Positions 6,949 through 59,072 of a stretch of 64,000 bases of DNA are shown here, one piece after another. The stretch lies in NCBI RefSeq assembly GCF_963921235.1, contig NC_086108.1:18910001-18974000 (forward strand), given 5' to 3'. Each line of letters opens with the position of its first letter. Position 1 is the stretch's first letter. A program made the position numbers and the translations under genes. This stretch comes from Mobula hypostoma. Its lineage: Eukaryota. Under the pieces are notes generated by a model, which was given only the letters and a program-made list of their open reading frames with translations, did not search any database and was not told the origin of the DNA.

Positions 6949-7188
6949 CAAACACAAGAAAATCTGCAGATGCTGGAACTCCAAGCACCACATAACATCC
7001 TGGGGGAACTCAGCAGGCCAGGCAACATCTATGGAAAAGAGTACACAGTGATGTTTTGGGCTGAGACCCTTCATCAGGACTGTCCTGATGAGTCCTGATG
7101 AAGGGTTGCAGCTGAAACATCAACCGTGAACTCTTTTCCATCGATGCTGCCTGACCTGCTGAGTTCCTCCAGCATTTTGTGTGTGTGC
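6949..7188. mobile_element. Palindromic (fold-back) Penelope-derived mini-element with degenerate hammerhead motifs
   Basis: Two inverted copies of the Penelope terminal sequence joined at tcatcaggac-t-gtcctgatga (7071-7091). Probable TSD ttgttgtt(c/t)ca at 6938-6948 and 7189-7199. Confidence 0.75.
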
Positions 7189-7379
7189 TTGTTGTTTCAA
7201 TTGGCTGACGAAGGTAGGGCCTCACAATGATGGACATGCGGGTGACAAATATGCATGTGATGGGGCAGGACAATCTATTTTAGGAGTGAAACCCCCAGGC
7301 AAACTTCCAAATAAAATCAGTTAGCTTAAGTGGAGACACAAAGACTGAAATTGCTGGAATCTGGAGGAACAAGTAATCT

Positions 7380-9795
7380 TAAACACGAGGAATTCTGCAG
7401 ATGCTGGAAATTCAAGCAACACACATCAAAGTTGCTGGTGAACGCAGCAGGCCAGGCAGCATCTCTAGGAAGAGGTACAGTTGATGTTTCGGGCTGAGAT
7501 CCTTCATCAGGACTAACTGAAAGAAGAGCTAATACGAGATTTGAAAGTGGGAGGGGGAGGGGGAGATCCAAAATGACAGAAGAAGACAGGAGGGGGAGGG
7601 ATGGAGCCAAGAGCTGCACAGGTGATTGGCAAAAGGGCTATGAGAGGATCATGGGACAGGAGGCCCAGGGAGAAGGAAAAGGGGAAGGGGGGAAAAACCC
7701 AGAGGATGGGCAAGGGGTATAGTCAGAAGGACAGAGGGAGAAAAAGGAGAGAGAGAGAAAGAATGTGTATATATAAATAAATAACGGATGGAGTACGAGG
7801 GGGAGGTGGGGCATTAGCAGAAGTTAGAGAAGTCAATGTTCATGCCATCAGGTTGGAGGCTACCCAGATGGAATATAAGGTGTTGTTCCTCCAACCTGAG
7901 TGTGGCTTCATCTTTACAGTAGAGGAGGCCGTGGATAGACATATCAGAATGGGAATGGGATGTGGAATTAAAATGTGTGGCCACTGGGAGATCCTGTTTT
8001 CTCGGGTGGACAGAGCCTAGGTGTTCAGCAAAACAATCTCCCAGTCTGCTTCGGGTCTCGCCAACATATAAAAGGCCACATCAGGAGCACCGGACGCAGT
8101 ATATCACCCCAGCCGACTCACAGATGAAGTGTTGCCTCACCTGGAAGGACTGTCTGGGGCCCTGAATGGTGGCAAGGGAAGAAGTGTAAGGGCATGTGTA
8201 GCATTTGTTCTGCTTACAAGGATAAGTGCCAGGAGGGAGATCAGTGGGGGGGGGGATGGGGGGGACGAATGGACAAGGGAGTCGCGTAGGGAGCGATCCC
8301 TGCGGAAAGCAGGGGGGGAGGGAAAGATGTGCTTAGTGGTGGGATCCTGTTGGAGGTAGTGGAAGTTACAGAGAAAAAGTTACAGAGGCTGGTGGGGTGG
8401 TAGGTGAGGACCAGGGGAACCCTATTCCTAGTGGGGTGACGGGAGAATGGAGTGAGAGTAGATGTGCGTGAAATGGGGGAGATGCATTTGAGAGCAGAGT
8501 TGATGGTGGAGGAAGGGAAGCCCCTTTCTTTAAAAAAGTAGGACATCTCCCTCATCCTGGAATGAAAAGCCTCATCCTGAGAGCAGATGCGGTGGAGATG
8601 GAGTAATTGCGAGAAGGGGATGGCATTTTTGCAAGAGACAGGGTGAGAAGAGGAACAGTCCAGATAGCTACCCCACCTCCAACGGGATCCCACCAATAAG
8701 CACATCTTTCCCTTCCCCCTTCTCTCTGCTTTCCACAGAGATTGCTCCCTACTCGACTCCCTTGTCCATTCGTCCCCCCCACCCCTCCCCACTGATCTCC
8801 CTCCTGGCACTTATCCTTGTAAGCAGAACAAGTGCTACACATGCCCCTACACTTACTCCCTTACCACCATTCAGGGCCCCAGACAGTCCTTCCAGGTGAG
8901 GCGACACTCCACCTGTGAGTCGGCTGGGGTGATAAATAACGGTTGGGGTACGAGGGGGAGGTGGGGCATTAGCGGAAGTTAGAGAAGTCAATGTTCATGC
9001 CATCAGGTTGGAGGCTACCCAGATGGAATATAAGGCGTTGTTCCTCCAACCTGAGTGTGGCTTCATCTTTACGGTAGAAGAGGCCGTGGATAGACATGTC
9101 AGAATGGGAATGGTGCTCCGGTGCTCCCGATGTAGCCTTCTATATATTGGCGAGACCCAAAGCAGACTGGGAGATTGTTTTGCTGAACACCTACACTCTG
9201 TCTGCCAAAGAAAGCAGGATCTGCCAGTGGCCACACATTTTAATTCCACATCCCATTTCCATTCTGACATGTCTATCCACGGCCTTCTCTACCATAAAGA
9301 TGAAGCCACAGTCAGGTTGGAGGAACAACACCTTATATTCCATCTGGGTAGCCTCCAACCTGATGGCATGAACATTGACTTCTCTAACTTCCACTAATTC
9401 CCCACCTCCCCCTCGTACCCCATCCGTTATTTATTTATTTATATATACACATTCTTTTTCTCTCTCTCCCTTTTCTCCCTCTGTCCCTTTCACTATACCC
9501 CTTGCCCATCCTCTGGGTTTCCCCCCCCTTTTCTTTCTCCCTAGGCATCCTGTCCCATGATCCTCTCATATCCCTTTTGCCAATCAACTGTCCAGCTCTT
9601 GGCTCCGTCCCTCCCCCTCCTGTCTTCTCCTGTCATTCTGGATCTCCCCCTCCCCCTCCCACTTTCAAATCTCTTATTAGCTCTTCTTTCAGTTAGTCCT
9701 GATGAAGGGTCTCAGCCCGAAACGTCGACTGTACCTCTTCCTAGAGATGCTGCCTGGCCTGCTGTGTTCACCAGCAACTTTGATGTGTGTTGGTT
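7380..9795. mobile_element. Penelope-like element (RT C-terminus and GIY-YIG endonuclease) arranged as a ~2.4-kb inverted duplication
   Basis: Minus arm: YLD.SSSHPVSCKNAIPFSQ...RICS (PLE RT thumb region). Plus arm: C..C.LLYIGET..RL..CFAEH...PVATHFN...LEEQHLIF.LGSLQPDGMN (GIY-YIG). Arms ~7420-7950 and ~9260-9795 are near-identical inverted copies. TSD gaacaa(g/a)taatct at 7367-7379 and 9796-9808. Confidence 0.88.
9694..9731 (+). ncRNA. Minimal type I hammerhead ribozyme (intact core) in the Penelope-like terminal repeat
   Basis: tagtc [stem I] ctgatga [core] a gggt-ctca-gccc [stem II] gaaa cg tc^ gactg [stem I']. Stem III is reduced to the palindrome ACGU. Predicted cleavage after 9726. Confidence 0.8.
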
Positions 9796-10339
9796 GAACA
9801 AATAATCTGCTGGAAGAACTCAGCAATACTGTGATAGAACAACCAACTAGCAAGTTGTACAGAAAGTGATATAACTAACAATCTGGGATCACAGTGCTGA
9901 CCTTCCACACAACACCTCAATGAGGCACTGGGTTTTATTTCTTGAAGACCTTGGAGTCAACCAAGTACTCCAAGAGTCTACAGTCAGAAATTCTTCACCT
10001 TTTTTATTAACTGCAATAACAAGATAAAGTTCCTGGCCTTCTGAAGCACCTTCAATTACTCCAAAAGACTGAGGTTTGGTAAAATACTGAAAGGCTTTTA
10101 TTCGCTGTACAATACGACCTCCACAGTGAGTGTCTGCCCCCGGACTGAGGGGGAGGGGCAAGGCGAACACCTTTATACAGGACTCTGTGGGAGGAGCCAC
10201 AGGGGCAGTCAGCAGAGGGGTGTGTCCAGACAGGTAACCGAGTTACAACATATATACATGGCTTACCACATTCACCCCTCCTTTTTTTAAAAAGAGTCCC
10301 ACGGGGTGAAGTGACTGACAATATTTACAAGAAGTATAT

Positions 10340-11505
10340 TTACAGGTTAAGTCTATCAGGCGGTCGAGTCCGTCGCTGTGATCTACGTAGCACCGGCGAT
10401 GGCAGTTGTGCTGCCTCTGGCCTGACTTCAGGTGCCAGCACGTTAGGCGTCGGTAATCCCTTGTGCGTGTGCGTCGCGCCCGGTATGGGAGTGTCGTGTG
10501 GTGTCTGTATAGGGTTTGGGGTGCACGGTGTCTCGTAGGTACATACATTGGTGGGTACGGGGTCAATAGTCACCACGGAGTGTTCAGGGTAGGGGCCCGG
10601 AGCTCCTGCGGGCGCCAGGTCGCAGATGGAGACCGTGCCCTCCCGCCCATCAGGTAAAACCACGTAGGCATACTGGGGGTTCGCATGAAGTAAGTGAACC
10701 CTCACAACTATCGGGGAGTATTTATTGCTCCTCGCATGTTTCCGGAGCAACACTGGCCCCGGGGACGTCAGCCAAGATGGTAGGGTGGTTCCAGTGGTCC
10801 ATTTTCTGGGAAAAGAAAAGAGCCGCTCATGAGGGGTGGCATTGGTGGCTGTGCATAACAGGGAGCGGATGGAGTAGAGTGCCTCGGGAAGGACCTCCTG
10901 CCAGCGGGAGACCGGCAGTCCCTTTGACCTGAGGGCTAAGAGTGTGGCTTTCCACACTATGCCATTCTCCTTCTCTACCTGTCCATTCCCCCGGGGATTA
11001 TAGCTCGTGGTCCTACTGGTTGCAATTCTCCTAGCCAGTAGATATTGGCGCAGCTCGTCACTCATAAACGAGGACCCTCTGTCACTGTGGATATAGCATG
11101 GGTATCCGAACAGAATGAAGAGCTTGCGCAGGGCTTTTATAACTGATGTGGTAGTGGTGTCGGGGCAGGGGATGGCGAAGGGGAACCGCGAGTACTCGTC
11201 AATTACGTTAAGAAAGTACACATTGCGGTCGGTGGAGGGAAGGGGGCCCTTAAAGTCAACACTCAGTCGCTCAAAGGGGCGGGTGGCCTTGATGAGTGGT
11301 GCCTTTTCGGGTCGGTAGAAGTGCGGTTTGCACTCTGCGCAGACTTGGCAGTCCCTGGTCATCATCCTGATCTCCTCAAGGGAGTAAGGCAGGTTCCGGG
11401 CTTTCACAAAGTGGAAAAGCCGGGTGACTCCCGGGTGGCAAAGGTCTACATGTAGGGCGTATAGCCGGTCGATCTGCGCGCTGGCGCATGTTCCCCGGGA
11501 TAGGG
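10340..11505 (-). pseudogene. Gypsy pol fragment: integrase
   Basis: HHCC zinc finger (H..LCHPG...CQVC), DDE core (SVDFKGPLP, IDEYSRF, HSDRGSSF, GNGQVE), Pro-rich C-terminus ending LRRSQR..RPPDRL. Confidence 0.9.
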
Positions 11506-12560
11506 CTGTACATGATGTCATAGTTGTAGGTGGAGAGTTCGATTCTCCACCTCAGAATTTTATCATTTTTGATTTTGCTCCGCTGCTGATTATTAAACAT
11601 GAATGCAACTGAGCGCTGGTCAGTTAGCAGGGTGAACCTTTTGCCGGCAAGATAGTGCCTCCAGTGCCTTATAGCTTCCACTATGGCCTGGGCCTCTTTC
11701 TCTACCGCAGAGTGCCGAATTTCAGGGCCTTGAAGGGTACGGGAGAAGAACGCCACCGGTCTTCCCGCCTGGTTGAGGGTAGCAGCCAGCACAAAGTCGG
11801 AGGCGTCACTCTCTACTTGGAAGGGAATGGCCTCATCCGCCACATGCATTGTTGTTTTGGCAATGTCCCCTTTTATGCGGCTGAAGGCTGCGCGGGCCTC
11901 AGCTGAGAGGGGGAATGTGGTGGACTTGACCAGGGGGCGGGCCTTGTCTGCATAGTTAGAGACCCATTGGGCATAATATGAAAAGAAGCCCAGGCACTTT
12001 TTGAGGGCTCTGAGGGTATTGGGAAGAGGGAGTTCCAACAAGGGGCGCATACGGTCGGGGTCAGGGCCAATGACTCCATTCTCCACGACACACCCAAGGA
12101 TAGCAAGTCGGGTGGTCCCAAATACACACTTGTCCTTGTTATAGGTGAGGTTGAAAGATTTGGCCGCTTGGAGAAATTTTTGGAGATTGTTGTCATGATC
12201 CTGCTGGTCGTGACCGCAGATGGTGATGTTATCCAGATATGGGAACGTGGCCTTCAGTTGGCACTGGTCCACCATCCAGTCCATTGCCCTCTGGAAGACA
12301 GATACACCATTCATGACACCAAAGGGGATGCGCAGGAATTGATAAAGCCTGCCGTCCGCCTCGAAGGCAGTGTAAGGGCGGTCCTCCCGGCGGATGGGGA
12401 GCTGATGGTAAGTGGATTGTAGGCCTATGGTCGAGTACACCTTGTACTGTGCTATCTGATTGACCATATCCGCTATGCGGGGTAGAGGGTACGCGTCAAG
12501 CTGCGTGAACCTATTGGTGGTCTGGCTATAGTCCACGACCATCCTATTCTTCTCCCCGTT
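11505..12560 (-). pseudogene. Gypsy pol fragment: reverse transcriptase and RNase H
   Basis: RMVVDY, DAYPLPRI, TAF, PFG, YLDNITICG, K..F, LGFFSYY; RNase H ESDASD, VAFFSRTL, EKEAQAI, LLTDQRS. A small deletion at ~11505 frameshifts the link to integrase. Confidence 0.88.
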
Positions 12561-13250
12561 CCGGACTGAGGGGGAGGGGCAAGGCGAACACCTTTATACA
12601 GGACTCTGTGGGAGGAGCCACAAGGGCAGTCAGCAGAGGGGTGTGTCCAGACAGGTAACCGAGTTACAACATATATACATGGTTTACCACACCTTGTTAA
12701 ATGTGAAATGCCAATCTTGTCTATAATTATATAATTTACCATCAGAGTTGTTCCATGCAGAGCTGAATGTAACAAAGAGAAATGGCACTACCTGGTAAGT
12801 GCAAATCTTTCTCAAACCCCACATTGTGCAAAATGCCATATTTATCATTTAACACCAGGGAGGGCTTCTCTAGATCCTGTTCAACAGCTGGGAGGAAGCA
12901 GTGGGGAGATAAACGAGAAATCTAGCTTAGAGCTCTTGCACTTGAAGGGGAGGTGGAAGTGGGAACATATAGGGTTGGTGATCCTCATCTGACCAATCTT
13001 TTGTATTTTTGGCTCATCTACTCACATTCTACCTTTCCCCTTTCCGCCAATGTTCCAGCTATCCAGTACTGTACCCTTTCTTCTCGTCTTCAGGTTGACC
13101 ACAGTCATTGCAGCATAAACAAGACTCCTTCAGTCTGACACTATATTTAAGTTCCTTTGCTCCCCACAGATAAATCACTTTTCACTTGGAATTTTATTTG
13201 GCATTTCCTTATATTGCTTATCAATGGCAAACCCTCTTAATCAAGTTTTC

Positions 13251-13364
13251 TGCTGAAGGGTCTCCACCTGAAACTTCCATAGATACTGCCTGGCCTGCTG
13301 AGTTCCTCCAGTATTTTGTGTGTGTTGCTTGGATTTCCAGCATCTGCAGATTTTCTCTTGTTTG
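13251..13364 (+). mobile_element. Penelope-derived mini-insert starting at a degenerate hammerhead core
   Basis: Begins (c)tgctgaagggtc...tgaaac and continues with the Penelope terminal sequence. TSD taatcaa(g/a)ttttc at 13238-13250 and 13365-13377. Confidence 0.75.
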
Positions 13365-13459
13365 TAATCAAATTTTCCAATCTGTTTCAGACATTTAGCA
13401 TAAATGACTTCATTAATTTTCAAGTCACTAGGGCTTTTAAGTCCACAAGGATTCTCTTG

Positions 13460-28679: not shown

Positions 28680-30610
28680 CATGAGCTTCAACATCCAGCA
28701 CGTCATTCTCCACAACATCCACCATCAACAGGATCCTAGCGCTAAACACGTCTTCACCCCCACACCCCCCTCCCCACTCTGTTTTCTGCAGGGATTGCTC
28801 TCAACATGACTCCCTTATCTGGTTATTTCTCCCCACTGATGGCCCTCCTGGCACTTATCCCTGCAAGTGAGACATGTGCTACACTTGCCCCTTCACCTCT
28901 TCCCTCTCTACCACTCAGAGTCCCAAACAGTCTTTCCAGGTGAGATCTGTCGGGGTCATCGACTGTATCCAGTGCTCCAGGTGTGGCCTCATCTCCATCA
29001 GTGATACCTGACACTGATTGGGGGACCGCTTCGACCAGCACCTTCCGCCACAACAGGTGGGAATTCCCAGCAGCCGCCCTTTTAAACATGATTTCCCATA
29101 CCCATTCTGACATTCTGTGGACTCCTCTACTGTCACGATGAGCTGTCTCTCATATTCTGTCTGGATAGCCTCCAATCTGATGGCATGAACATTGATTACT
29201 CTCCTCCCCCCCCCTCTCTTTTTCAATTTTCCATTCAGTTCCTCTCTTACTCCTTCTCTTCTCTCTTACACACTGGAGGCTGTGGTAGAACAAAGGACCT
29301 AACAGAAAATGCTGGCAATTCTGGGCAATGTTTCTCACCCTCTGCATGCCACCTTGGCTGAACAGAGGAGCACTTTTAATAATAGACTAAGACAACTGAG
29401 CTGCTCCAAAGAGCGCTATATGAGGTCATTCTTACCCTCGGCCATTAGACTCGATAATGAATCAACCTATAGCCAGGGAAGTGATAACCTCCTTGTGTTA
29501 GACGATTTGAGGTAACTTACTTTTTATTCTTTCTTACTTTTCTTCTAATATTTGTATATCTGTGCACCTGTAATGCTCCTGTGACACCGTAATTTCCTTT
29601 GCGAGGAGCAGAAGATGGCAGTGCGATGCAGTGCGCAGCGGCCACTCCGGTGAATGATATCTGTTATTTGTCAAATAGGGTGCCGTGCACAATCCTGATT
29701 TGATGGAGACAGATGTGAGAGCACAGAGGAACATCTGGAGAAACTTCTGAAATGTCTGCTTCGCTGCCGCTGCTACTGTGCAATCCAGAAACTCCAGAGG
29801 AGAAGACCCCGAGTCCTCCGCTTTGCTTGTTACTCAACAGCCGGGGCGAGGTCGAAGCGCTCAGCAGAGGATGGCGGTCAGGAGGCTGTATCGGAGGGGT
29901 TGGTCAGAGGCTCGAAGTTTTCAGACAGACTCAGAGTCAGCTGTGGTCGGGTGCTTCCAATGCATCGGCAGTTGTCAGCGCCTGGAGGTTTATGGCAGAC
30001 AGAGTTTCTCCCTTTTGCTGCCTGCTATCAGGACTATCGGAACTTTGAGACTTTTTTTTTACAGTGCCCATGGTCTGCTCTTTATCAAATTATGGTATTG
30101 CTTTGCACTGCTGTAACCATGTGTTATAATTTATGTGGGTTTTTTTCAGTGTTAGTCTTTGGTTTGTCCTTGTTTTTTTTGTGATATCACTCTGGAGGAA
30201 CATGCATGCATTTCTAAATGACAATAAACGAGGACTGAGTGTCCTTATAATCTAATCAGTCTAATCTAATCTATCTATCTATCTCTTCTCCTCACCTGCC
30301 TATCATCTCCAACTACTGCCCCTCTTCCTTCCCCTTCTCTCATGGCCCACTGTCCTCCCCTATCAGAGTCCTTCTTCTTCATTCCTTAACCTTCCTACCT
30401 TTCACCTCCCAAATATGCACTTCATCCATCCTCCCCCATTTCCCCACGTCCCCATCACTGATTCCATCTATCACCTGACAGCTTGTGCTTCTTCCCTTCA
30501 CCCAACCTTCTTCTAGCTTCTTTCCCCCTTCCTTTCCTGTCCTCAATTGTTTATTCCACTCCATAGATGCTGCCTGACCTGCTGAGTTCCTCCAGCATTG
30601 TGCATGTATT
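28680..30610 (+). mobile_element. Degenerate Penelope-like fragment interrupted by a Rex-like 3' fragment (~29270-29600) and a SINE-like element (~29600-30285)
   Basis: 28680-29200 resembles the GIY-YIG region at 8670-9390. 30290-30610 resembles the pyrimidine-rich 3' region and terminal repeat. The insert resembles 4630-5255. Confidence 0.65.
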
Positions 30611-33284: not shown

Positions 33285-34095
33285 ACAGACAATAGACAAT
33301 AGGTGCAGAAGTAGACCATTCGGCCTTTCGAGCCTGCACCGCCATTCTGAGATCATGGCTGATCATTTACTATCAATACCCGGTTCCTGCCTTGTCCCCA
33401 TGACCCTTGATTCCCCTATCCATAAGATACCTATCTAGCTCCTTCTTGAAAGCATCCAGAGAATTGGCCTCCACTGCCTTCTGAGGCAGCGCATTCCACA
33501 CCTCCACAACTCTCTGGGAGAAGAAGTTCCTCCTCAACTCTGTCCTAAATGACCTACCCCTTATTCTTAAACCATGCCCTCTGGTACTGGACTCTCCCAG
33601 TATCTGGAACATATCTTGTCCAATCCCTTAATAATCTTATATGTCTCAATCAGATCCCCCCTCAATCTCCTTAATTCCAGCGTGTACAAGCCCAGTCTCT
33701 CTAACCTCTCTACGTAAGACAGTCCGGACATCCCAGGAATTAACCTAGTGAACCTACGCTGCACCTCCTCCACAGCCAGGATGTCCTTCCTTAACCCTGG
33801 AGACCAAAACTGCACACAATACTCCAGGTGTGGTCTCACCAGGGCCCTGTACAAATGCATAAGGATTTCCTTGCTCTTTACTCAATTCCCTTTGTAATAA
33901 AGGCCAACATTCCATTAGCCTTCTTCACTGCCTGCTGCACTTGCTCATTCACCTTCAGAGACTGATGAACAAGTACTCCTAGATCTCTTTGTATTTCTCC
34001 CTTACCTAACTCCACACCATTCAGATAATAATCTGCCTTCCTGTTCTTGCTCCCAAAGTGAATAACCTCACACTTAGTCACATTAAACACCATCT
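33285..34095 (-). mobile_element. 5'-truncated CR1 (copy F), same young family as copy A
   Basis: Near-identical to 2900-3720 reversed; (acaatag)n tail; carries a 13-nt deletion shared with copy G. Confidence 0.93.
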
Positions 34096-34828: not shown

Positions 34829-35303
34829 CAGGCTGGAGGAACAACACCTTATACCCGTCTGGGTAGCCTCCAACCTGATGGCATGAACACTGACTTCTCT
34901 AACTTCCGCTAATGCCCCACCTCCTCCTTGTACCCCATCCGTTACTTATTTACATACACACATTCTTTTTCTCTCTCTCCTTTTTCTCCCTCTGTCCCTT
35001 TCACTATACCCTTTGCCCATCTTCTGGGTTTTCCCCTTCCCCCTTTTCTTTCTCCCTAGGTCTCCTGTCCCATGATCCTCTCATATCCTTTTTGCCAATC
35101 AACTGTCCAGCTCTTGGCTCCATCCCTCCCCCTCCTGTCTTTTAACATTTCGGATCTCCCCCTTCCCCTTCCACTTTTAAATCTCTTACTAGCTCTTCTT
35201 TCAGTTAGTCCTGACGAAGGGTCTTGGCCTGAAACGTCGACTGTACCTCTTCCTAGAGATGCTGCCCGGCCTGCTGCGTTCACCAGCAACTTTTATGTAT
35301 GTT
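34829..35303 (+). mobile_element. Penelope-like 3' fragment containing an intact hammerhead
   Basis: Near-identical to 9315-9790. Confidence 0.88.
35206..35243 (+). ncRNA. Minimal type I hammerhead ribozyme (intact core)
   Basis: tagtc ctgacga a gggt-cttg-gcct gaaa cg tc^ gactg. Predicted cleavage after 35238. Confidence 0.77.
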
Positions 35304-37934: not shown

Positions 37935-38745
37935 GTTACACCCATCCCTACACCTCCTCCCTCACTACCATTCAGGGCCCTAAACAGTCCTTCCAGATGA
38001 GGCAGTCCTTCTCATGATATCCATCAATGTCGTTTTATTGTATTTGGTGCTCCTGGTGTGGCCTTCTTTACACCGGTGAACACTCAAATTGGAGGATTGC
38101 TTTGTCTAGCACCTTCACTCCGTCTGCCATAACAGTCAGGATCTTCCATTGATCAGCCACTTTAATTCCACTTCTCATTCCTACACCAACATGTCTGCCC
38201 ATGTTTTCCTCTACTTCCAAATTGAGACTAGATGCTGTTTAGAGGAAAAGTGTTTTATATTCCACTTTGATAGTCTCCAACCTGACAACATGAGCATCAA
38301 TTTCTCTAACTTTTTTCCCTTATCCCATCCCAATGTCCCCCATCAACGCTTCTCTTTCCTCTTCTCCACTCTTTTAATCTGCCCATTATACCCACACATT
38401 CCTCCCTCCAAGTTCCCTCCTCACCTCTTTCCCTTCATTCCATGGTCCATTAACCTCCCCTATCAGATTCCATCTTCTTCACTCTTTGTCACTTCCACCT
38501 ATCACCTTTTGGTTCCTTATATCATTCCCACTCTCCCACCCATCACTCCCATCTCACCTGCACCCACCCATCATCATCAGCTCTTGCTCTATCCCTGCAC
38601 AGACCCACCCGCCCCCCACCATCACCACTTTTTTGTACTGGTTGTCTCCCTACAAGGAGCTGGAGGAACTCAACAGGCCAGGCAGCATTCATGGAAAGGA
38701 AATAGTCAACATTTTAGGCCGAGGCCTTTCACAAGGACTGGAAAG
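37935..38745 (+). mobile_element. Old Penelope-like GIY-YIG fragment with an inverted terminal piece
   Basis: SHFNSTSHS..NMS...LEEK.FIFHFDSLQPDNMSINFSNF; an inverted terminal repeat follows at ~38655-38745. Confidence 0.7.
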
Positions 38746-40164
38746 AAAGAGGGATGAAGCCAAATGGTTATGTCTCCTTGCTTGTTACTCTCCCACCATT
38801 GAAAGCATCGAACATCTGCCCCGCTGATTCCCTTTTGGATCTTATATATTTGAGTAAGATCATCCCTCATTCTTCTAATTGCATGGAATGCAGCTCCAAA
38901 TTATTTAGCCTCCCTTTTAGGACAACTCTCTAATTCCAACAATCAGCCTGGTGAATCTCTTTTGGACTGCCTCCACTATTACAATGTTTTTTTTAGGTAA
39001 GGTAACAGTGCACAGTATTCCAGGTGACACCTCACCAACACCCTGTAAAATTGTAACAAAACCACGCGTTTTAACATCCAACCCCTTTGCAATGAAGCCC
39101 AAAATGCCATTTGCTTTCTTAACTAAGCACACTTCAGGGCTTATACAAAGAGAATTCAGGGGGAAGTGGCCTTTATTTATTGGGAAAGGATGCATAGACT
39201 GGGGTTGTCTCCATAGTAAAGAAAAAGCCATGAGATGTTTGCAATTTTGATGCAGTTTGATGGAATAGATTTATTTGTGGGAGAGAGTAAACTAAGGTCA
39301 CAAACTTAAGAGAAGCGTTAGTTGAGACATGTACATCAGTGATTGAGGCAGATGTATTCATGGCAGAGGCAGGAACATAAACAACATTTAAATTTAGACA
39401 GGTACATGGAGAAGAAGGGTTTATAGGTACCTTGGCCAAATGCAGGCAAATTCAACCAGCCTAGGTGGGCATCTTGGGCATGCACCAGTTGGGCCGAAGG
39501 GCCTGTTTCTGTGCTGTATTACTCTATGACTGAGCCCCATAACTTCTGCCATAGTACACACCTTATGAACAAAAATCAACTGAGAATTTCAACTTCACTT
39601 TTTATTTGTATGGTTTGATGAAGGATTGGAATTTCTGTTGGCCTTTGTTCAGTCTCTATTCCCATTTTCTGTTCCTTAATTTCAATGGCAGAGCAAAGGG
39701 AATATTGGGTATATACATCATGTTTCAACATTTCTGTTGAAGCTGTGAGTCAGTGGGCAGGGCAGGGGGAATACTCACTTTCTTCCCTTCTTCCTACTTC
39801 CCTTCAACCATTCAGTTCTTGAACTATTCCACACTAATCACTGCCTTGGTATAGCAACACCACAGACACTTTGCACCACAATGAACTTGTTTTTGTTTTA
39901 ATGGTGTACATTCTTGTATAATTTGTTTTCTTGTAAATGTTTTGTCTCTAGTACGATGTGCCTGTGATGCTGCTGGAGGTAAGATTTTCATCGACAGTAC
40001 ATACACGGACTTATGGATATATCAATAAACAACCTTGATTTTGTCACTCCCTGCCCTTTCTAATGCATGAAAATATTATCAAGTAAAAGACATTCCAAAT
40101 ATAGTTTCATAAATGAATTAGAAGCAGTTGCCTCTTTTGATCATAAGAAGAAAGAGCGTGTATC

Positions 40165-40655
40165 ACAAGGATTCCCATTCCTGTTCTGACATGTCGGTCA
40201 CTGGCCTATTCTTGTGCCATGATGAGGCCACCCTCAAGGTGGAGGTGCAACACCTTATACTCTGTCTGAATAGCCTGAAGCCTGAAACCTGATGGCATGA
40301 ATATTGATTTTTCCTTAAAACAATTCCAGTAAAAAAAATTCCTTCGCCCTCCCTTCTATTCCCCACTCTGGCCTCTTACCTTTTCTCAGCTGCCTATCAC
40401 CTCCCACTGGTGCTCCTTCTCCTTCCCTTTCTCCTATCCTATCAGATTCCTTCCGCTCTAGCCCTTTACCTTTCTCACCCACCTGGCTTCACCGGTCATC
40501 TCCCAGCTATCCTCCTTCCCCTCTCCCACCTTTTCATTCTGTCGTCTTCCCCCTTCTTTTCCAGTCCTGAAGAAGGGCTGCAGACTGAATGTCAACTGTT
40601 TGTTCATTTTTATGGATGCTGCCTGAGCTGCTGAGTTCCTCTAGCATCTTGTGTG
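40165..40655 (+). mobile_element. Old Penelope-like 3' fragment with a degenerate hammerhead (cagtcctgaagaagg, ~40562)
   Basis: Similarity to 9250-9790. Confidence 0.7.
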
Positions 40656-42238
40656 TATATCACAAGGAAGGTGCCTGGCATAGATTCTTCAGTGAGGAAG
40701 CCAAGAACGGCAGACATTTTTGCAGCCAAAATTCATTTTGCTAACTTAAGTGGAAAGTTTCACCTGCAGAGCTCCATGTAAGGTTGGGAAGAATCCTTCA
40801 GAGGGTGTTGAATCTCTGGAATTCTCTACCCCAGAGAAAGTTGTGGAGGGTAGATCACTGATAATTAAAGAGGAAGTAAATAAGTTGTGGAAAGATCAGG
40901 GAATCAAGGGTGATGGGAAATTGGCACAGTGGAGGAGATGAGGCCTGGGGCAGAATAGCCATGATTATATCGAATGATAAGGCAGCCTTGAGGGAACTGA
41001 TAGATTTACTCCTGCTTCAATCTTCCCTAGTGATCAAATGCACAGCATCGAGGTTAAAGTACGAGCACCAGATCCATGGAGTGAAACGCAGGAAGAACCT
41101 TGTCATTCTGCAATCCAACCCAGTCACTAGCCCCACAAAAAAATAAACCAACGTTTGAGATTGATTCTGACTTTCTTATCAACTATAAGCATCGTCTGTT
41201 CAGTTTCTGCCACAGAATCTGAGGCAGAAGCAGCCAGTGGAGGGATGGTTTAGAAGTCTCGTCTCCACAAGCAGGTATTTCTCATGTAAACAGAGTCAGG
41301 ATTATTCCCCGTGTGTGTTACAGCCCCTTGCGTTGGGCTAAACAGGGGACCAGCTGTGTGTATAGCATTTATTCTATTGATGCAAAAGAACGCAAACATT
41401 AATTAAGTTGTCTTTGGAAGGCTCTCAATCTGGAGAGGAAAGGAGCCACTGATGCACTCGCTGAGTTAGTCAATCCTTCATGAAAAAGGAAAGCCAGTAC
41501 AAGATGCCATTGACTAACTCTCGACCCCCACTCTCCAAAATTAATAAAGACCTTGGTTCACAGACATCACTAAGAGGGAGCTGGGGCATTAGTGATCTGT
41601 AATTGGAAATTGTACTCCTCCCGGTAGTCCTTTGTTTACCCAGGATTGTCTCGTCATACTGGGTGAAAGCAGTGATTAAATCTTAGACTGCGGGATTAGA
41701 GGTGGCATATGGGTCTCCAGAGAGCCACCTCTCATCTCTTATATTCTCATAGAAAGTGGCTTTGAGGTACACTCTCTCGCACTTTTAAACCTTCTTTGTT
41801 ATTCTGCTTAGTTTAAATCAGAAGAGATGGGGGAAAGAATTAAAAGAAACGTGCGGACCTTAATGTGACTTTTAACAGAAGGGTGCGAAAGGCCGCAGCT
41901 CGGCTGTGCGGTACTCGAAGTTGAGCAGTGGGATCCTTTCACCACCAGACTGCCCTTTTGGTACATGAGTCCCTCTGCATTATGACTAGCAATATGCCAG
42001 CATTAATCAGGCTCTTCATTCAAACTGTATTTCCTGGTGATAGGCACACAACAGGTGGCCCACTGAGCACAACAATAGGCCCTTCAGCCCATCGATTCAA
42101 TGATGGAACATAGTCCATCAACTCTATTTACACTAATCCCATTTTCTTCTTCCTTACATTCACATCAATCACCTGAAAATTTTTCCACTACCTGCACTGC
42201 ATCTTCTCTGCAACTGTAACACTATACTTTGCATTGTT

Positions 42239-42353
42239 TAAAAACGCAAACACGAGGAATTCTGCAGATGCTGGAAATTCAAGCAACACACATCAAAGTT
42301 GCTGGTGAACACAGCAGGCCAGGCAGTATCTCCAGGAAGAGGTACAGTCGACG
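42239..42353 (-). mobile_element. Penelope-derived mini-insert beginning 4 nt upstream of the predicted hammerhead cleavage site
   Basis: Matches 7381-7485. TSD tac(t/c)ttgcattgtt at 42225-42238 and 42354-42367. Confidence 0.8.
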
Positions 42354-43749
42354 TACCTTGCATTGTTATTGTTTTTCCCTTGTACGATTGTTATTCCATT
42401 TTCCAAGGGTAATGAAATGATCTGTATGGATGGCAGGCAAAAACTGTTTTTCACTTTACCTCGGTACATGTGACAATAATAAACCAAATTACAGAATTCT
42501 ACAGTGCAGAGGATAGCTCAGTGTCTGTAGCGGGGCTGGAAGCAAAGTTCAAAAGGAGTTGTACAGACAATTCAGAGAGGAATTGACAGGGCTAGAGGGG
42601 ATGAGTCTACTGTGCCATAACAGTTTAATTTCTCTACAATAAAAGAAATCACTATAACATAAATGCTCCAAATCTATTGCATCTCCTCTTTCTGACACAC
42701 GCACTATAACCAGATTTATCCCCACACATTAGTTCCATAATGGCAATTGCTGCTAAAATCTTTGACTAGAGAAGGACAGTAGGTAAGCCAATTATGAGAA
42801 AACTTTAGAGAACCTGTTTACCAACAAACTAGTTTCAACATTACAACAGGAACTTCATTACTGCAGGACATTATTAGTTATAATAATGTCCTCCCAGACA
42901 TCCTTGATTATGGAAAGCTCCTGAAAATCTCAAAATACAAGGCTTGCTTTTATCTTATTCTTAAAGTTGACAATTCCCAAAGCCCTCAGGTTCAGTGAGC
43001 CCTGGAGTGGAGGGGTTTGACGTAAGGGAGTTGCAGGTTTCTCTTCCCCCTTATAGTGCCTAAGAATAGAGAATATTGAGGAGGGAATACTAACACAGAA
43101 ATTAAAGATGGATGAGTGCAATTGGGTGATCAATGGTCAGTACAGACTTGGGCGGGGGGACTGTAGGGTTTCTTTACATATTGTACTTCCCTATGGCTAA
43201 GTCTATGAATGGTTTGCCTGTAAGCAGCTTCAGAAAAAGATAGTGCAGCCTTATTATGATTCACAGGTGAACCTCCTTGCCACCAGTATAGTACAGCAGA
43301 AGGGTGAGCTACTGTGAAGGAGAACCAGGTGATTGCTTCCAACTGTAAAACAACCAGCCAGTGAAAGACAGGCCTACTGCTTTCCCTGAAATAAGGATTG
43401 GTGAGGAATTGCTGACATTGTGTCATCCTTTCAAATGTATTTTTTCCCGAGATGTGAGTGTGGAGCCACATCCAGAACAAATATGGGTTCTGGCATTCCA
43501 CTGCACTGCTGTGATTTGGAGTCATATATAAGGACTCAGAAGGCTTTCACATGAACCCAGCAGTGAGCTGGCCAAGTCTAGTTGGAACTGTAGCTGGAGA
43601 CTGCATGACATGACTTCCAGCCTCTAACTTTTTTGCATAGCCCTTTTAACGTTTTAAATAATAAGCTGAAGTATTCATAGAAACAGGGTAAACATCAGTA
43701 CTATTGTTTAAGTTAAGTTTCCTGCTTGTGTGCTGGCAGTGACAATGTA

Positions 43750-48054: not shown

Positions 48055-48287
48055 CTGAGTCCGAGGCGGCCGGACTGACCAGGCTCAGGAGCTCCCGTTC
48101 CTTCTCATAGTCACTCTTGCAGAGCAGTTGGCCCTCCTTCAGCACAAACTCGTCTCCCTTGCGCAGCTGGCGCTCGCACACACAGCAGCAGAAGCAGTGC
48201 AGGTGGTAGACGCTCTTCTGGGCACGCATTACGAACTCGGTGGGGGCAATGGTCTCCATGCAGCCACTGCACTTGGCTGCAAAAAGC
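48055..48287 (-). CDS. LMX1A: Internal coding exon (233 bp) of LIM homeobox transcription factor 1-alpha, encoding the second LIM domain
   Basis: Translates [77 protein letters not shown](G), a C2HC/C3D LIM zinc finger. The 'RAQKSVYHL' and '[14 protein letters not shown]' segments match LMX1A rather than LMX1B as I recall them. Canonical acceptor cacag|G at 48288/48287 and donor CAG|gtaatc at 48055/48054. Length is 1 + 77 codons + 1. Confidence 0.93.
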
Positions 48288-51800: not shown

Positions 51801-52252
51801 AGTTGATTTCAGTAACCAACTCGATCGTCGATGTCAAGTTGCTGTGGGAAGATCAATATTTTCCTAATAATTACTGATTGCAGGGACGTTGTACTTCTCT
51901 CCAATTTCTCCACTCAAATTACTGAATATTCATTTTATTCCACACCTTTTTAATCAAGTGCTGGATTTAGACATAGCACAAATAATACGCATCTCAATGT
52001 AGGTAAGATACAGGAAAAGCATGTTGCAAGATGCAGTAAACCTTGTTTTAGTGTCCATTCCTTTTCATGTGGTCACTGGGGAATGGGAACAATGCACTCC
52101 TGTCGGCAATGACAGTCCCACCTGTGTCTCTTCGTCTGTTCCTCTTCATCCAAGTGCAGGCTGCATTGAAGGAAGCTTCTCTCCTGCTGACACTGTACAA
52201 CCCATGTGTTCATCTGTGTTAGACCAGCTGGTACATATACAGTATCCTGCAT

Positions 52253-52462
52253 GAGGGATCCATCCACTCTCTGGCACTGTACAGTCTCTGTATATCACTG
52301 TTAGACCCTGAAGGATCCATCCACTCTCTGGCTCTGTACGGTCTGGTAGACCCTGAGGGATCCATCCACTCTCTGGCTCTGTATAGTCTCTGTATATCAC
52401 TGTTAGACCCTGAGGGATCCATCCACTCTCTGGCTCTCTACGGTCTGGTAGACCCTGAGGGA
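52253..52462. repeat. Minisatellite with alternating 57- and 45-bp units (102-bp higher-order repeat x2)
   Basis: The ga(g/a)ggat start of the gagggatccatccactctctggc unit recurs at 52253, 52310, 52355, 52412 and (partial) 52457. Confidence 0.85.
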
Positions 52463-52839
52463 TTCAGTCACAGTGGGACTGTACATTCCATGTATATCAA
52501 TGTTAGATGCTGTATGTAAAATACACTAGGTAAAGGAGCCATCCCACTCCTTAGCACCATATGGTCTGTGTGTACCGTTGTTAAACCCTGCACAGTCCTC
52601 TGGGTGAGGCTTGCATCCCATTCTCTGGCACTGTATACCATCCATGGGTATCACTGTCAGATTCTATATGTACAGTACACATTTAATTAGGGAAGGGAAC
52701 TCCCCCAGCTCTGTCCAATGGAAATTCTACCAATCCAATGTAAGCGGACAACTTGTGAACCGAACCCTACCCTCCTGTCCCTCTTCCACAACGCTCCATG
52801 TCCTCTGTAAAGTGTCATTCCAGCTCTCGCAATCTGCCC

Positions 52840-53314: not shown

Positions 53315-53580
53315 ATTTATTTATTGAAAGACAGCGCAGAATAGGACCTACCTGCCCTTCAAGCCGCGCAGCCCAACAGCCCCCGTTTTAACCCTAGCCT
53401 AATCACGGGACAATTTACAATGACCAATTAATCCACAAACCAGTATGTCTTTGTTCTTTGGGAAGAAACCATGTGATCAGAGGATGAACATACAAACTCC
53501 TTACAGGCAGCAGCGGAATTGGACCCAGATCACTAGTACTGCAAAGCACTGTGCTCACCACTACACTATTGTGCCACCCC
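53315..53580 (-). mobile_element. tRNA-derived SINE (V-SINE/HE1-like)
   Basis: Similar to 48600-48870; (ttta)n tail on the left. Confidence 0.68.
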
Positions 53581-53889
53581 AGCGATTGGCATGGAGAGGT
53601 GTGGGTGGGAGGAAAAGGTTAAGTACTGGAGCTGAAATGGATAAACACCCATTTCAGGTAACACTGAGCTTCCTCTATACTCTTGGGTGTGAGGCGGAAG
53701 GGTTCAGATTGGTATTCCAATCACTGGGCACCTTGGCAATGATGGCAGCCCTTGGATTGCCCTGAGACTGCCACATCTCTTCAATCTCTGTGACAGGTGA
53801 GTTCACACTATACAAAGGAGGAGCAAGAGACACTTACAGATGCAGGAATCCGGAGCAACACACTCAAAGCTGGAATCAGAGATATCCAT

Positions 53890-54119
53890 GGGGAGGCACA
53901 GTGGTTCAGCAGGTAGAACTGCTACCTGACAACTGCAGCGACCCTGGTTCAACCCTAAGCTCAGATGTGGTCTGTGTGAAGTTTGCACATTCTCCTTGTG
54001 ACCACGTGGATTTCAGCCAGGTGCCCAGTTTCCCACTTCCAAGCACATGCCAATTGGCCACCATAATTTGACCCAGGTATGTTGTTGCGTGCTAGGATCT
54101 GGGAGGGGTTGATGTGAAA
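53890..54119 (+). mobile_element. tRNA-derived SINE into which CR1 copy G inserted
   Basis: ggcacagtggttcagcaggtaga (A box), ggttcaaccc (B box), then tgtgtgaagtttgcacattctcc. Confidence 0.62.
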
Positions 54120-55841
54120 ACAATAGACAATAGACAATAGGTGCAGAAGTAGACCATTCGGCCCTTCGAGCCTGCACCGCCATTCTGAGATCATGGCTGA
54201 TCATCTACTATCAATACCCGGTTCCTGCCTTGTCCCCATGACCCTTGATTCCCCTATCCATAAGATACCTATCTAGCTCCTTCTTGAAAGCATCCAGAGA
54301 ACTGGCCTCCACTGCCTTCTGAGGCAGCGCGTTCCACACCTCCACAACTCTCTGGGAGAAGAAGTTCCTCCTCAACTCTGTCCTAAATGACCTACCCCTT
54401 ATTCTTAAACCATGCCCTCTGGTACTGGACTCTCCCAGCATCTGGAACATATCTTGTCCAATCCCTTAATAATCTTATATGTCTCAATCAGATCCCCCCT
54501 CAATCTCCTTAATTCCAGTTTGTACAAGCCCAGTCTCTCTAACCTCTCTGCGTAAGACAGTCCGGACATCCCAGAAATTAACCTAGTGAACCTACGCAGC
54601 ACCTCCTCCACAGCCAGAATGTCCTTCCTTAACCCTGGAGACCAAAACTGCACACAATACTCCAGGTGTGGTCTCACCAGGGCCCTGTACAAATGAAAAA
54701 GGATTTCCTTGCTCTTGTACTCAATTCCCTTTGTAATAAAGGCCAACAATCCATTAGCCTTCTTCACTGCCTGCTGCACTTGCTCATTCACCTTCAGAGA
54801 CTGATGAACAAGTACTCCTAGATCTCTTTGTATTTCTCCCTTACCTAACTCCACACCCTTCAGATAATAATCTGCCTTCCTGTTCTTGCTCCCAAAGTGA
54901 ATAACCTCACACTTCTTCCCATTAACTGCCACCTGCCAAGTTTCTGCCCATTCACCTAGCCTATCCAAGTCACCTTGAATTCTCCTAACATCCTCATCAC
55001 ATGTCACACTGCCACCCAGCTTAGTATCATCAGCAAACTTGCTGATGTTATTCACAATGCCTTCCTCTAAATCATTGACGTAAATCATAAACAGCTGTGG
55101 TCCCAATACCAAGCCCTGTGGCACCTCACCAGTCACCACCTGCCATTCCGAGAAACACCCATTCACTGCTACCCTTTGCTTTCTATCTGCTAACCAGTTT
55201 TCTATCCATGTCAATATCCTCCCCCCAATGCGATGAGCTCTGATTTTACCCACCAATCTCCTATGTGGTACCTTATCAATGCTTTCTGAAAGTCAAGGTA
55301 CACCACATCCACTGAATCTCCCGCGTCTATCTTCCTGGTTACATCCTCGAAAAACTCCAATAGATTAGTCAAGCATGAGTTGCTCTTGGTAAATCCATGC
55401 TGGCTTGGCCCAATCTTATCACTGCTATCAAGATATGCCGCTATTTCATCTTTAATAATGGACTCTAGCATCTTCCCCACTACTGATGTTAGGCTAATAG
55501 TTCTCTGTTTTCTCCCTCCCTCCTTTCTTAAAAAGTGGGTTAACATTAGCCATTCGCCAATCCTCAGGAACTGATCCTGAATCTAAGGAACATTGGAAAA
55601 TGATCAGCAATGCATCTGCAATTTCCAGAGCCACCTCCTTTAGTACCCTAGGATTCAGACCATCTGGACCTGGGGATTTGTTAGCCTTCAGTCCCATCAG
55701 TCTACTCATCACCGTTTCCTTCCTAATGTCAATCTGTTTCAGTTCTTCTGTTACCCTATGTCCTTGGCCCATCCATACATCTGGGAGATTGCTTGTGTCT
55801 TCCCTACTGAAGACAGATCCAAAGTACTTATTAAATTCGTC

Positions 55842-55941
55842 AACACACATCAAAGTTGCTGGTGAACGCAGCAGGCCAAGCAGCATCTATAGGAAGAGGC
55901 GCAGTCGACGTTTCAGGCCGAGACCCTTCGTCAGGACTAAT
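55842..55941 (-). mobile_element. 100-bp Penelope-derived insert with an intact hammerhead, inside CR1 copy G
   Basis: Perfect 11-bp TSD ttaaattcgtc at 55831-55841 and 55942-55952. The empty site is visible in CR1 copy A at ~1983-1993. Confidence 0.9.
55902..55939 (-). ncRNA. Minimal type I hammerhead ribozyme (intact core), sense to the LMX1A pre-mRNA
   Basis: Minus strand: tagtc ctgacga a gggt-ctcg-gcct gaaa cg tc^ gactg. Confidence 0.78.
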
Positions 55942-58884
55942 TTAAATTCGTCTGCCATTTCCCTGTTTCCCATAACAATTTCTCCCAATTCATTCTTCAA
56001 GGGCCCAACATTGTTCTTAACTATCTTCCTTCTCTTCACATACCTAAAAAAAACTTTTGCTATCCTCCTTTATATTCCTAGCTAGCTTGCGTTCATGCCT
56101 CATTTCTTCTCCCCGTATTGCCTTTTTAGTTAAGTTCTATTGCTCCTTAAAAATTTCCCAATCATCCCTCTTCCCACTCACCTTAGCTCTGTTATACTTC
56201 TTTTTTAATGCTGTGCTATCTCTGACTTCCTTTGTCAACCACTGTGGCCACTTCCCCGCCCCCCTTTGAATCCTTCCTTCTCCGGGGGATGAACTGATTT
56301 TGCACCTTGTGCATTATTCCCAAGAATACCTGCCATTGCTGTTCCACTGTCTTTTGTGCTAGGATATCCGACCAGTCAACTTTGGCCAGTTCCTCCCTCA
56401 TGGCTCCATAGTCTCCTTTGTTCAACTGCAATACTGACACTTCTGATCTGCCCTTATCCCTCTCAACTTGCAGAAAAGAGGATAGTTGTAAGTAGGTGAC
56501 TGATGGTTGGCTGAAGCGACTCTGTGAAATTACGGATCATGCCTCAATGCCATTGGTAATTACAAGGCACTCCCAGGCAGACCTTGTGTCCTAATTGATT
56601 GGAGCTGAAGGTAGAACTACAATGAGGGACAGTTTCTGCCAATACACAGGTCCCAGTTTCAAGGTGCCCACAGCCGGCCAGTGGTGTAGTGGCATCCGCA
56701 CTGGACTTCGAGGTGAGTGGTTCCAGGTTAAAACCCGGCCAGCTCCTTGCACGCTTTCCATTCGTAATGGGTTGAGCGTCGAGCTAGCAATTCGGCCTCG
56801 TACAGAGAAAATGTTAAAGAAATGGTAAGGATGCTGCCCAATGCATCACAAGGCGGGGAAAGGAAGAACAACAAGGTGTCCATGCCAGTAAAGCCACCTT
56901 CCCAGGCTCTATAGCTTTGCCATTGAATGCCTATCATTGGGTGAGAGAACCTTACTGCATAAGGCCATGTGGTAACCATAATGCTACCCTCTCCCATTAC
57001 ACACTGACAATATATCTTACACAACCACACACTCAAAGCACAAGAACTGCCATATCCCTGAATCACTCCTGTTTTATCCAGGGTTTTACTTATTTACCAT
57101 GATGTAGAAGGAGACATTCAGCCCATTGTCTCCCTGCTGAATCCCTGCAAAGCAATCCCATCAGTCCCACGCTTTTCTCCTTATTCTGCCTCCACATGCC
57201 CATCAATTTCCCTTTGATTCTTTTGTAATTTACAGTGGCCAGTTAACCTACTAGCTCATCCTTGGGTTGAGAGAGAAAACTGGGGCCACAGAAGGAAGCT
57301 CATATGGTCACAAAGAGAATGTGCAAGCTCTACACAGGCAATAGTGAGGTCAGTTTTGAACCTGGGTCCTGGGGCTGTGAGGTAGGAAGATTAACCACTA
57401 AACCACCAAGTTGCCATTGAGATTGTGGGAAGATTGAGGTGCTTACTGATGGCAGGGTTTTAAAAGCAAAGAGACAGGGCTTAGGTAGACAGGAGCAGAA
57501 TGTCCTAGTGAGAGATCCAGAGTTATGCAGAAGTTCTTTTAAACAGAGGCCTCCAACATGTGGAGTGCACTGCTTGCATTGGTGATCAGCACCGAGAACA
57601 TGGCAACATTCCGATACCAGTTAGATAACTGAAGTCCAAGGAGAATGAAATTAAGAAATGTGAACAGAGATGGAAATTGGGCTTATTAGAACTGTTCATA
57701 TGAACAATATATACTACAGAACTGCTCTCTATTTTCACAAAAATAATATTTTCGTTTAATCATCAACCAGGTGATGATGAATGATCTAGGCAGATTTACA
57801 TTCCCAGAAAAATCAAGAAAACAATATTGTCATTTCTTCAGCTACGTGTACTTTCTGAGCTGCAACAGGTGAAGGTAACTTCATGTTTTTTTCCAGCATG
57901 ATGCAGAGGAGCTGACAACACAGGGCACTGGCTGCAGGCTCACCCACAGAAACCTGCAGCTAAGAATAGACATTGCTCCCTGTTCCTTTATTTGGACCAA
58001 ATGCATGCCATTAGTATTGACTGCTCTCACCTTCCATCATATCTGAATGATCAGTTCAAACAAAGGAAAGTCTGAGAACATTCAGGGCAAGGACAGTGAG
58101 TGGGAGATGCTTCCTCATCCTTATAATCAAAATAATTCATGCAGGATGAACTAGATACAGAATAATGGCCACTTTACACCATAACTTCACATACTCATGG
58201 AGCAGGGACAACATGCATTAGATAGAGAGGCAGAGGAGTTAGATACAGAGTAAAGATCACTGTCCCATCACACACTCCCAGGGGAGGGACAATATGGGTT
58301 AGACACAGGGTATGCCCCCTCTGCAAGCCTCAGGGGGTCTCCTCAACCATTGTTCTTGCAGGCAGGATCATGAAGGAGGTGGAGCCAAGTACATTTGGCA
58401 TGGTCCACTCATGTCTGCTTGGAGGACGATAAGAAAAGGAACAAGAAGGGTTTAGAGTCCATTGCCCTTGAGGTGGTGGGCACTCTCATGCTCCTACCTA
58501 GTTTCCCTCAACCCTACTGGGCTTGTGCTAGAAGTTTCTTAAAAAGCCTGTGTTAATGACAGAGGCCTTCCAATGGTGCTGCATGTCAAGGTTTGCAGAT
58601 CATCACTATGATGTTGGAGGTGCTCATTCATGGTACAGTAACTGTTTTGCCACATGCTATTTTACAGTACTGTCTGCCATAGACAGTGACTTCTTAATGC
58701 ATCCTGTATCCAGGAAATGACATTTTAAGTTTTCCGGATGTTTTAGAAATGTTTTTTTTAAACATTTAAATTTGAACTAAAACTTGTCCTTCAGACTGAC
58801 AGGACAGGTATTTGAATCTCCATTTCCTACACAAGACATGCACCTAAATTGTGTTAGTGAGATTAAAATACACCCTGAGCCTCA

Positions 58885-59072
58885 GAAACAAGGAAAAATC
58901 TGCAGATGTTGGAAATCCAAGCAACACACACAAAATGCTGGAGGAACTCAGCAGGCCAGGCAGCATCTATGGAAAAAAGTACAGTCAACGTTTTGGCCCG
59001 AAACATCAACTGTATTTTTCCATAGATGCTGCCTGGCCTGCTGAGTTCCTCCAGCATTTTGTGTGTGTTGCT
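58885..59072. mobile_element. Palindromic Penelope-derived mini-element (188 bp)
   Basis: Perfect ~58-bp inverted arms (58920-58977 and 59015-59072); centre lies in hammerhead stem II. Perfect TSD cctgagcctca at 58874-58884 and 59073-59083. Confidence 0.88.

Follow-up and report, generated by a model that had tools for sequence, protein, structure and literature searches.

The insertions and their parent element

The window analysed here, a stretch of 64,000 nucleotides (nt) from the genome of Mobula hypostoma (G000:C50:18910001-18974000; genome size 3.48 Gb), contains many CR1-like LINE fragments, one long terminal repeat (LTR) element, a LIM-domain exon and copies of an endonuclease-containing (EN+) Penelope-like element (PLE). 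Among the last are five short insertions that begin, or fold back, in or directly ahead of a hammerhead ribozyme motif (Table 1). A first-pass annotation of the window took these mini-inserts for a separate, non-autonomous and retrozyme-like class of element, mobilised by a Penelope-type protein and bounded by the ribozyme. Our analysis shows that they are truncated end pieces of the very abundant autonomous EN+ PLE and very probably do not make up an independent mobile element. Both the type of element and the architecture of the inserts are already known; the distinctive feature is a stop fixed at the ribozyme's 5' edge, where about one-fifth of all arms (single copies, or one half of a head-to-head pair) end just in front of the motif.

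Positions in the element are counted from the predicted hammerhead cut, 0 being the first base after GAAACGUC; on this scale the motif spans -32..+4. A minimal type I motif with CUGANGA and GAAA boxes, stems I and II, a palindromic 15.2-16.2 and NUH is found both in the subfamily A consensus and at 55902-55938. The subfamily B1 consensus has CUGCUGA as its core, as does the insert at 13251, which has also lost the cut site through a short deletion. An Rfam scan of the 64-kb window gave no match at the gathering score, and the motif folds no better than shuffled sequences (z from -1.1 to +1.3), the minimum free energy structure of the monomer lacking the full fold.

All five insertions are present and, as had been proposed, represent separate events with their own target-site duplications (TSDs) of 11-14 bp. 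These TSDs are not chance matches, since only 14 of 1500 mismatched flank pairs score in the TSD finder; the one at 6949-7188 is not scored by the stricter finder used across the sample described below. For the insert at 55842, a paralogous CR1 copy at 1462-3720 lacks the insertion and carries the 11-bp target once, near 1983-1993. Three young CR1-like copies in the window (1462-3720, 54125-56477 and 33281-34095) are 95-97% alike, one having this insert and another being the empty site. The right ends do lie about 65-115 nt past the cut, but these are the two ordinary ends of the whole family, long copies also ending at about +67 or about +105. In addition, the five inserts are a selection: the window holds 13 arms, six of which break upstream of -36, and they form the short end of a size range because longer copies, including one of 2.4 kb at 7380-9795, occur beside them.

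The parent element is represented elsewhere in the genome by L213, where positions 2586-5693 hold a 1036-amino-acid open frame. DKG, YIDD and VIY..YIGET motifs can be read from its translation, and this single open reading frame (ORF) combines a PLE-type reverse transcriptase (RT) with a carboxy-terminal GIY-YIG endonuclease. The frame matches Pfam RVT_1 with E=4.7e-5, which fails the curated cutoff, and no GIY-YIG match in Pfam and no match in PDB was obtained for it; the assignment to PLEs therefore rests on motifs and architecture. The linker between the two domains, CKRNKCYTC, conforms to the CX2-5CxxC pattern that defines the Neptune/Nematis clades (PMC8557442), which suggests an element of Neptune/Nematis type. 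The hammerhead motif lies in the sense of the ORF, about 300 nt past the GIY-YIG frame. In L214 a pseudo-LTR (pLTR; -302..+103) runs into the ORF, whose first long-frame ATG is at about +138.

The architecture of EN+ PLEs is found in full: a pLTR or partial tandem, an inverted 5'-truncated copy, a one-sided tail of 30-40 bp and a TSD. The tail is on exactly one arm in 47 of 58 inverted pairs, and 34 of 59 inverted insertions have a TSD (mode 13 bp), against the null of 14/1500. Copies of a subfamily are about 77-100% like their own consensus. The attribution of the inserts to a Penelope RT/GIY-YIG protein is supported. A further copy of the ORF, L216 (2765-5230), has an amino-terminal proline/serine-rich segment of about 70 amino acids present three times in frame.

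Table 1. Penelope-like copies and ribozyme motifs in the window (element positions relative to the predicted cut)
Feature	Position	Strand	Description	TSD
Head-to-head mini insertion	6949..7188	.	minus arm -33..+105 (tail), plus arm -32..~+68 (no tail); 8-nt linker between arms repeats element -30..-23	6938-6948 / 7189-7199; 11 bp, 1 mismatch
Single mini insertion	13251..13364	+	left end -27/-28, right end +103; subfamily B1	13238-13250 / 13365-13377; 13 bp, 1 mismatch
Single mini insertion	42239..42353	-	left end -4/-5, right end ~+110 (tail end); subfamily A	42225-42238 / 42354-42367; 14 bp, 1 mismatch
Single mini insertion	55842..55941	-	-34..+65; subfamily A; within CR1 copy	55831-55841 / 55942-55952; 11/11
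Minimal type I hammerhead motif, intact	55902..55938	-	stem I, CUGACGA, stem II, GAAA, palindromic stem III, GUC	
Predicted hammerhead cut	between 55907 and 55906	-	in 55902..55938	
Head-to-head mini insertion	58885..59072	.	arms -18..+104 (tail) and -13..+69; centre within stem II	58874-58884 / 59073-59083; 11/11
Long (2.4 kb) rearranged head-to-head insertion	7380..9795	.	same Penelope family; tail on left arm, none on right	7367-7379 / 9796-9808; 13 bp, 1 mismatch; read by eye
RT C-terminal fragment	8241-8810	-	in 7380..9795	
GIY-YIG fragment	8936-9397	+	in 7380..9795	
Hammerhead motif	7478-7514	-	in 7380..9795	
Hammerhead motif	9695-9731	+	in 7380..9795	
5'-truncated single copy, ~470 bp	34834..35301	+	~-410..+65; ends approximate	14 bp
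Older 5'-truncated copy	30286..30610	+	-288..+66; subfamily F	
Older copy end	38659..38762	-	aligned -55..+52; subfamily F	
Older copy	40232..40656	+	beyond -372 to +63; subfamily D	

Breakpoints concentrate at the hammerhead's 5' edge

The distribution of left ends was studied in 1.8 Mb outside the window, made up of 200 kb of flanking sequence plus 32 50-kb blocks placed at round coordinates of other contigs. This sample contains 307 arms, which corresponds by extrapolation to about 590,000 in the genome. Each arm was aligned to references for six subfamilies; these and a pyrimidine check were adopted since the upstream sequence of another subfamily can mimic a junction. From 320 arms, 297 were kept after removal of 13 in the window, one at a block edge, eight with a 3' end below +40 and one duplicate. 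Because extension of the consensus upstream folded into the inverted arm, the limit for censoring was -648 in subfamily A and between -291 and -388 in the other subfamilies.

The annotation had proposed a test for a peak of breakpoints at the ribozyme against a smooth truncation model, and this test yields an enrichment that stands outside the window as well. A fitted smooth decay expects 8.7 breaks at -36..-28, where 59 of the 297 arms end. The zone was picked after the histogram had been viewed, and a scan simulation corrects for the choice: the best 9-nt window holds 61 breaks, compared with at most 38 in 5000 simulations, none of which reached the observed value. The break hazard in the zone is 0.042 per nt, against 0.0035 at +6..+35, 0.0049 at -37..-66 and 0.0018 at -67..-126, with 0.009 per nt inside the motif and stem II. 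The peak is common to the young subfamily A (16/87) and the others (43/210), to single (31/180) and inverted arms (28/117), and to arms verified by a TSD (25/83). Over the wider interval -36..+5 the share is 120 of 298 arms outside the window. The zone of the cut site, in contrast, has no significant excess (p=0.12). Among the 31 single arms in the peak, two may be unrecognised or deleted long copies; TSDs are found in four of the 31 and in 11 of 110 other singles. In a relaxed search, young single arms have a TSD in 10 of 69 cases, unlike the inverted insertions described above, most of which have one. Beyond such adjacent TSDs, a search for a far-upstream TSD, as expected of 5' transduction or a host exon, had low power and found one in 31 peak singles (null 8/1000), a result that supports neither origin.

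Exact junctions counted genome-wide place the stop more precisely. At -32 there are 1474 of 35,656, a corrected share of 10.4% of the copies at risk; at -30 there are 620 (4.4%) and at -34 there are 234 (1.5%). Two control positions, -57 (122/50,955) and +8 (95), have corrected shares of 0.67% and 0.5%, and the cut site (490/89,086) has 1.2%; the denominators at -34, -30 and +8 were taken from neighbouring patterns. The profile falls steeply upstream of the peak and has a shoulder downstream. The mode of the stop is -32..-30, the 5' edge of the ribozyme, at which all of the motif has already been copied by the RT. By extrapolation the genome contains about 114,000 peak arms. The sharp peak takes in three of the five insertions of the window (6949, 13251 and 55842), and those at 42239 and 58885 fall in the downstream shoulder. 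The reading given in the annotation is upheld in part: breaks are strongly enriched at the motif, but they peak at its far 5' edge and not at the cut site.

Proposed run-off at the 5' end of the RNA and its rivals

We give about an even chance to the explanation that left ends pile up where the copied RNA begins and the RT runs off its end. The two right ends and the one-sided tail match the two internal RT start sites of the PLE of the anole, whose protein in vitro initiates internally at two sites, nicks both strands and inserts independently of the hammerhead (PMC11167929). On this model the Mobula protein would nick both target strands and prime cDNA at two internal sites, at about +67 and +105. 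The transcript would start at an initiator-like site at -32 inside the 5' pLTR, so that priming 100-140 nt downstream would yield a run-off cDNA, which might then join the target or a second cDNA via microhomology or short re-primed pieces. The source of long copies would be either RNAs that reach upstream of -32, by read-through or as tandems, or a template jump. Probably, the minis are dead by-products.

Several observations are consistent with a template end at -32: the steep fall upstream, the short linkers and the absence of pairs that combine a peak arm with a long one. Among 58 inverted pairs, no peak arm has a partner longer than -60 where 5.8 are expected (p=0.0009), as would be the case if both arms copy RNA that ends at the peak, and linkers beyond the stop are at most 17 nt in 21 of 23 peak pairs. 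Position -32 matches YYANWYY, the initiator (Inr) consensus, in five of the six subfamily consensuses. In the two PLEs with a mapped start site, this site is inside the pLTR (PMC2377424, PMC8557442).

Other observations weigh against run-off or limit what the counts can carry. An extra untemplated G is a cap signature of an RNA 5' end; it is present in 11 of 22 junctions at -32/-31 versus 6.2 expected (p=0.024, post hoc), but in 12 of 46 over the whole peak versus 12.9, and a hand count finds it in 25 of the first 100 genome-wide -32 junctions, about background (junctions with T at -34 were outside the pattern). Pairs of a short and a long arm are depleted as well (4 versus 11.2 expected), so that the pair result lacks specificity and may reflect a shared time limit. 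There is a small upstream shoulder of 17 events at -37..-66. The relaxed TSD search finds a TSD in only 18 of 141 single arms (null 6/300), so the boundaries of most singles rest on alignment. A hand count of 100 listed -32 junctions marks about nine as probable long copies from other subfamilies, and AG microhomology makes 27 assignable to either -32 or -30; for these reasons the mode is given as a range. The in vitro model is a Poseidon element, whereas that of M. hypostoma appears to be of Neptune/Nematis type. Finally, in Penelope of D. virilis the 3' end of an intron lies at helix I's 5' end (PMC4209133), and this intron has the start site 46 nt upstream of it (PMC2377424), a layout that fits a splice site.

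A 3' splice site at -32..-30 would keep the same element and priming: bound splicing factors would block the RT, or it would copy a spliced RNA whose first exon is very short. A pyrimidine tract with YAG at -33..-31 is present in all six subfamily consensuses, and B2 and F have an upstream yUnAy and subfamily A a variant of TACTAAC, both being branch-point consensus motifs. AG microhomology at the exon end would also move an apparent -30 to -31/-32, and the ratio of sample junctions at -33..-30 (6:15:13:6) is compatible with this. On the other hand, the AG belongs to stem I too, which accounts for its conservation, and no common upstream exon is seen; bases ahead of the junction are heterogeneous, and the short linkers often derive from the element itself. 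In no peak single is element sequence directly joined upstream at a donor, the exon-start junctions at -34 and -30 are fewer than those at -32, and a simple block would let some partner arms through, while none of 23 extends beyond -60. In the 6 of 22 contig sets that were compared (18 of the 22 being only presumed RNA), no GT-AG joint ending at the acceptor was found over a stretch reaching to -309. Loose ends at position 5523 of L214 look like upstream sequence of other subfamilies and were not used as evidence. The splice-site explanation is the strongest of the rivals, though clearly less likely than run-off.

Two further explanations place the cause in the ribozyme itself. The peak could result from a joining bias, nascent cDNAs annealing or snapping back at self-complementary stretches, or from release of the RT after it has unwound the fold. 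Three subfamily A pairs join at or beside the near-palindrome -31..-24, the partner lies at -2..+8 in 4 of 23 peak pairs as snap-back at stem I predicts, 16 of 100 listed cut-site junctions have snap-back form (hand count) and the hazard is raised through stem II. Singles, however, show the same peak, and snap-back accounts for a minority of cases. Since the RT moves 3' to 5' on the RNA, a stall on the fold, which the annotation had preferred to copying of a cleaved product, is expected at its 3' foot at about +4, and a cleaved template end at 0. There is no significant excess at that foot, and the motif has no fold better than its shuffles; we consider this structural explanation unlikely, and its stalling form does not fit the position of the peak. 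Hammerhead cleavage as the source of the template's 5' end is hardly credible. The corrected junction rate at the cut is about twice that of the two controls, but about eight times below that at -32, and a hand count of 100 listed cut-site junctions attributes 31 to microhomology (the 16 snap-backs and 15 skips across the stem). The annotation had already doubted cleavage, as no insert ends exactly at the cut, and the genome-wide rates and the sample test bear it out. Because the cut site shows no significant excess, neither cleavage nor stalling explains the peak, and the boundary is probably not set by ribozyme cleavage.

The remaining possibility, a separate non-autonomous hammerhead-delimited element of retrozyme type that amplifies from mini master copies or circles, we regard as very improbable. 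It would account for the fixed left end and the very high number of peak arms. None of the five inserts is a head-to-tail tandem of at least two complete ribozyme units; few head-to-tail doublets occur among the 307 sampled arms, and among the matches listed there is one possible head-to-tail trimer (G000:C2:12242897-12243219, minus strand), with three matches 145 bp apart, each starting from -30. This possible trimer resembles a retrozyme array or repeated re-priming. Tandem arrays, which define non-LTR retrozymes (bioRxiv 2026.07.22.740005), are thus rare here. In a nearest-neighbour test on an 86-nt core of 61 minis and 105 long arms, the nearest-neighbour share is 0.48 versus 0.37-0.38, slightly above chance but not significant (p=0.08, or 0.12 within families). 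Subfamily A has 17 variable columns in this test, and four of them differ (p=0.01-0.02, uncorrected), which may reflect the age of a sub-lineage. The minis in the test set come from five of six subfamilies, each with its individual junction, and resemble the long copies in their right ends, the asymmetry of the tail and the length of the TSD; they probably form no lineage of their own. Their boundary peaks at -32..-30 and is not at the cut site, and RNA downstream of the tail, a requirement of the anole protein in vitro (PMC11167929), is missing from them.

If run-off is the cause of the peak, a more far-reaching proposal can be made, which we hold as tentative and would not expect to prove right: PLEs would replicate via a strong-stop-like step, with an RNA start at the 5' edge of the hammerhead, target-primed reverse transcription 100-140 nt downstream, run-off, and an obligatory jump to the repeat at the other end of the RNA, possibly trimmed by the ribozyme, for long copies and pLTRs. 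The stubs, some 100,000 in each genome, would on this view be fossils of jumps that failed. Two junctions deserve mention here. In the block starting at L098 (31821-32074), an inverted junction has a sense piece of -25..-2 and one G ahead of a -32 start; this one case may be the trace of a jump that left the RNA 5' end and landed at an end close to the ribozyme cut. In the block starting at L073 (48488-48729), the final bases of the tail recur in the linker of an inverted junction, as if the RT had re-started at the initiation site after -32.

Other features of the window

The longer Penelope copies of the window are listed in Table 1. The RT and endonuclease pieces of the insertion at 7380-9795 are internally inverted, and the copy at 34834-35301 has the same right end as the mini-inserts. 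A piece of an LTR retrotransposon at 10140-12691 (minus strand) lies between direct repeats of 131 bp with 98.5% identity and carries frames for RT, RNase H and integrase. The LIM-domain exon (PF00412), at about 48079-48270 on the minus strand, resembles Lmx1a, and the inserts may lie in introns of that gene. Self-comparison also reveals local tandem or near-tandem repeats at 52252-52507 and 62670-63085.

Implications and comparison with known systems

The stop bears on how PLEs form their pLTRs and on what their hammerheads do; in the sole in vitro system, initiation was internal and cleavage was dispensable. Fixed at 32 nt upstream of the cut and common to the subfamilies, the stop argues that uncut RNA is copied in vivo, and it provides an exact nucleotide for testing. 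The stubs could also be a simple origin for the many lone minimal hammerheads and 'monomers' of retrozymes known from vertebrate genomes. In the literature covered on Penelope-like elements, hammerheads, pLTRs and truncation, subscription papers excepted, we found no report of a stop at the 5' edge of the ribozyme.

Several known systems share features with the copies described here. Minus-strand strong-stop DNA of LTR retroelements is primed near the RNA 5' end and runs off after about 100-200 nt; here, in contrast, the primer would be the nicked target DNA, and the short product is integrated. Non-LTR retrozymes (bioRxiv 10.64898/2026.07.22.740005) are likewise short and non-coding, have a type I hammerhead and are related to the pLTRs of PLEs, but they are tandem repeats with at least two complete motifs, whereas the minis are dispersed monomers or head-to-head pairs. 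Published minimal type I hammerheads have the same palindromic stem III and occur mostly as single motifs or as opposite-strand pairs 100-700 bp apart, read as truncated PLEs; template cleavage and circularisation have been proposed for them, while the breaks found here are 32 nt upstream of the cut.

The Poseidon element PAc of Anolis (Frangieh et al. 2024, PMC11167929) matches the model proposed here in that the RT starts at two internal sites downstream of the hammerhead, which define the tail, both strands are nicked and uncleaved RNA serves as template. It belongs to another clade, its ORF starts inside the ribozyme and not at about +138, and the accessible part of that study reports no 5' stop site. 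A match in architecture is seen with EN+ PLEs of Neptune/Nematis type (Craig et al. 2021, PMC8557442) and the PLEs of Adineta vaga (PMC3846280). These have the same single ORF of RT and carboxy-terminal GIY-YIG with a CX4CxxC linker, heavy 5' truncation, a head-to-head inverted copy, the 30-40 bp one-sided tail and TSD, a pLTR that runs into the ORF, and solo pLTRs with and without TSDs. Truncation is called frequent in the accessible parts of those papers, with no fixed stop reported; in M. hypostoma, about 20% of arms end within a 9-nt window.

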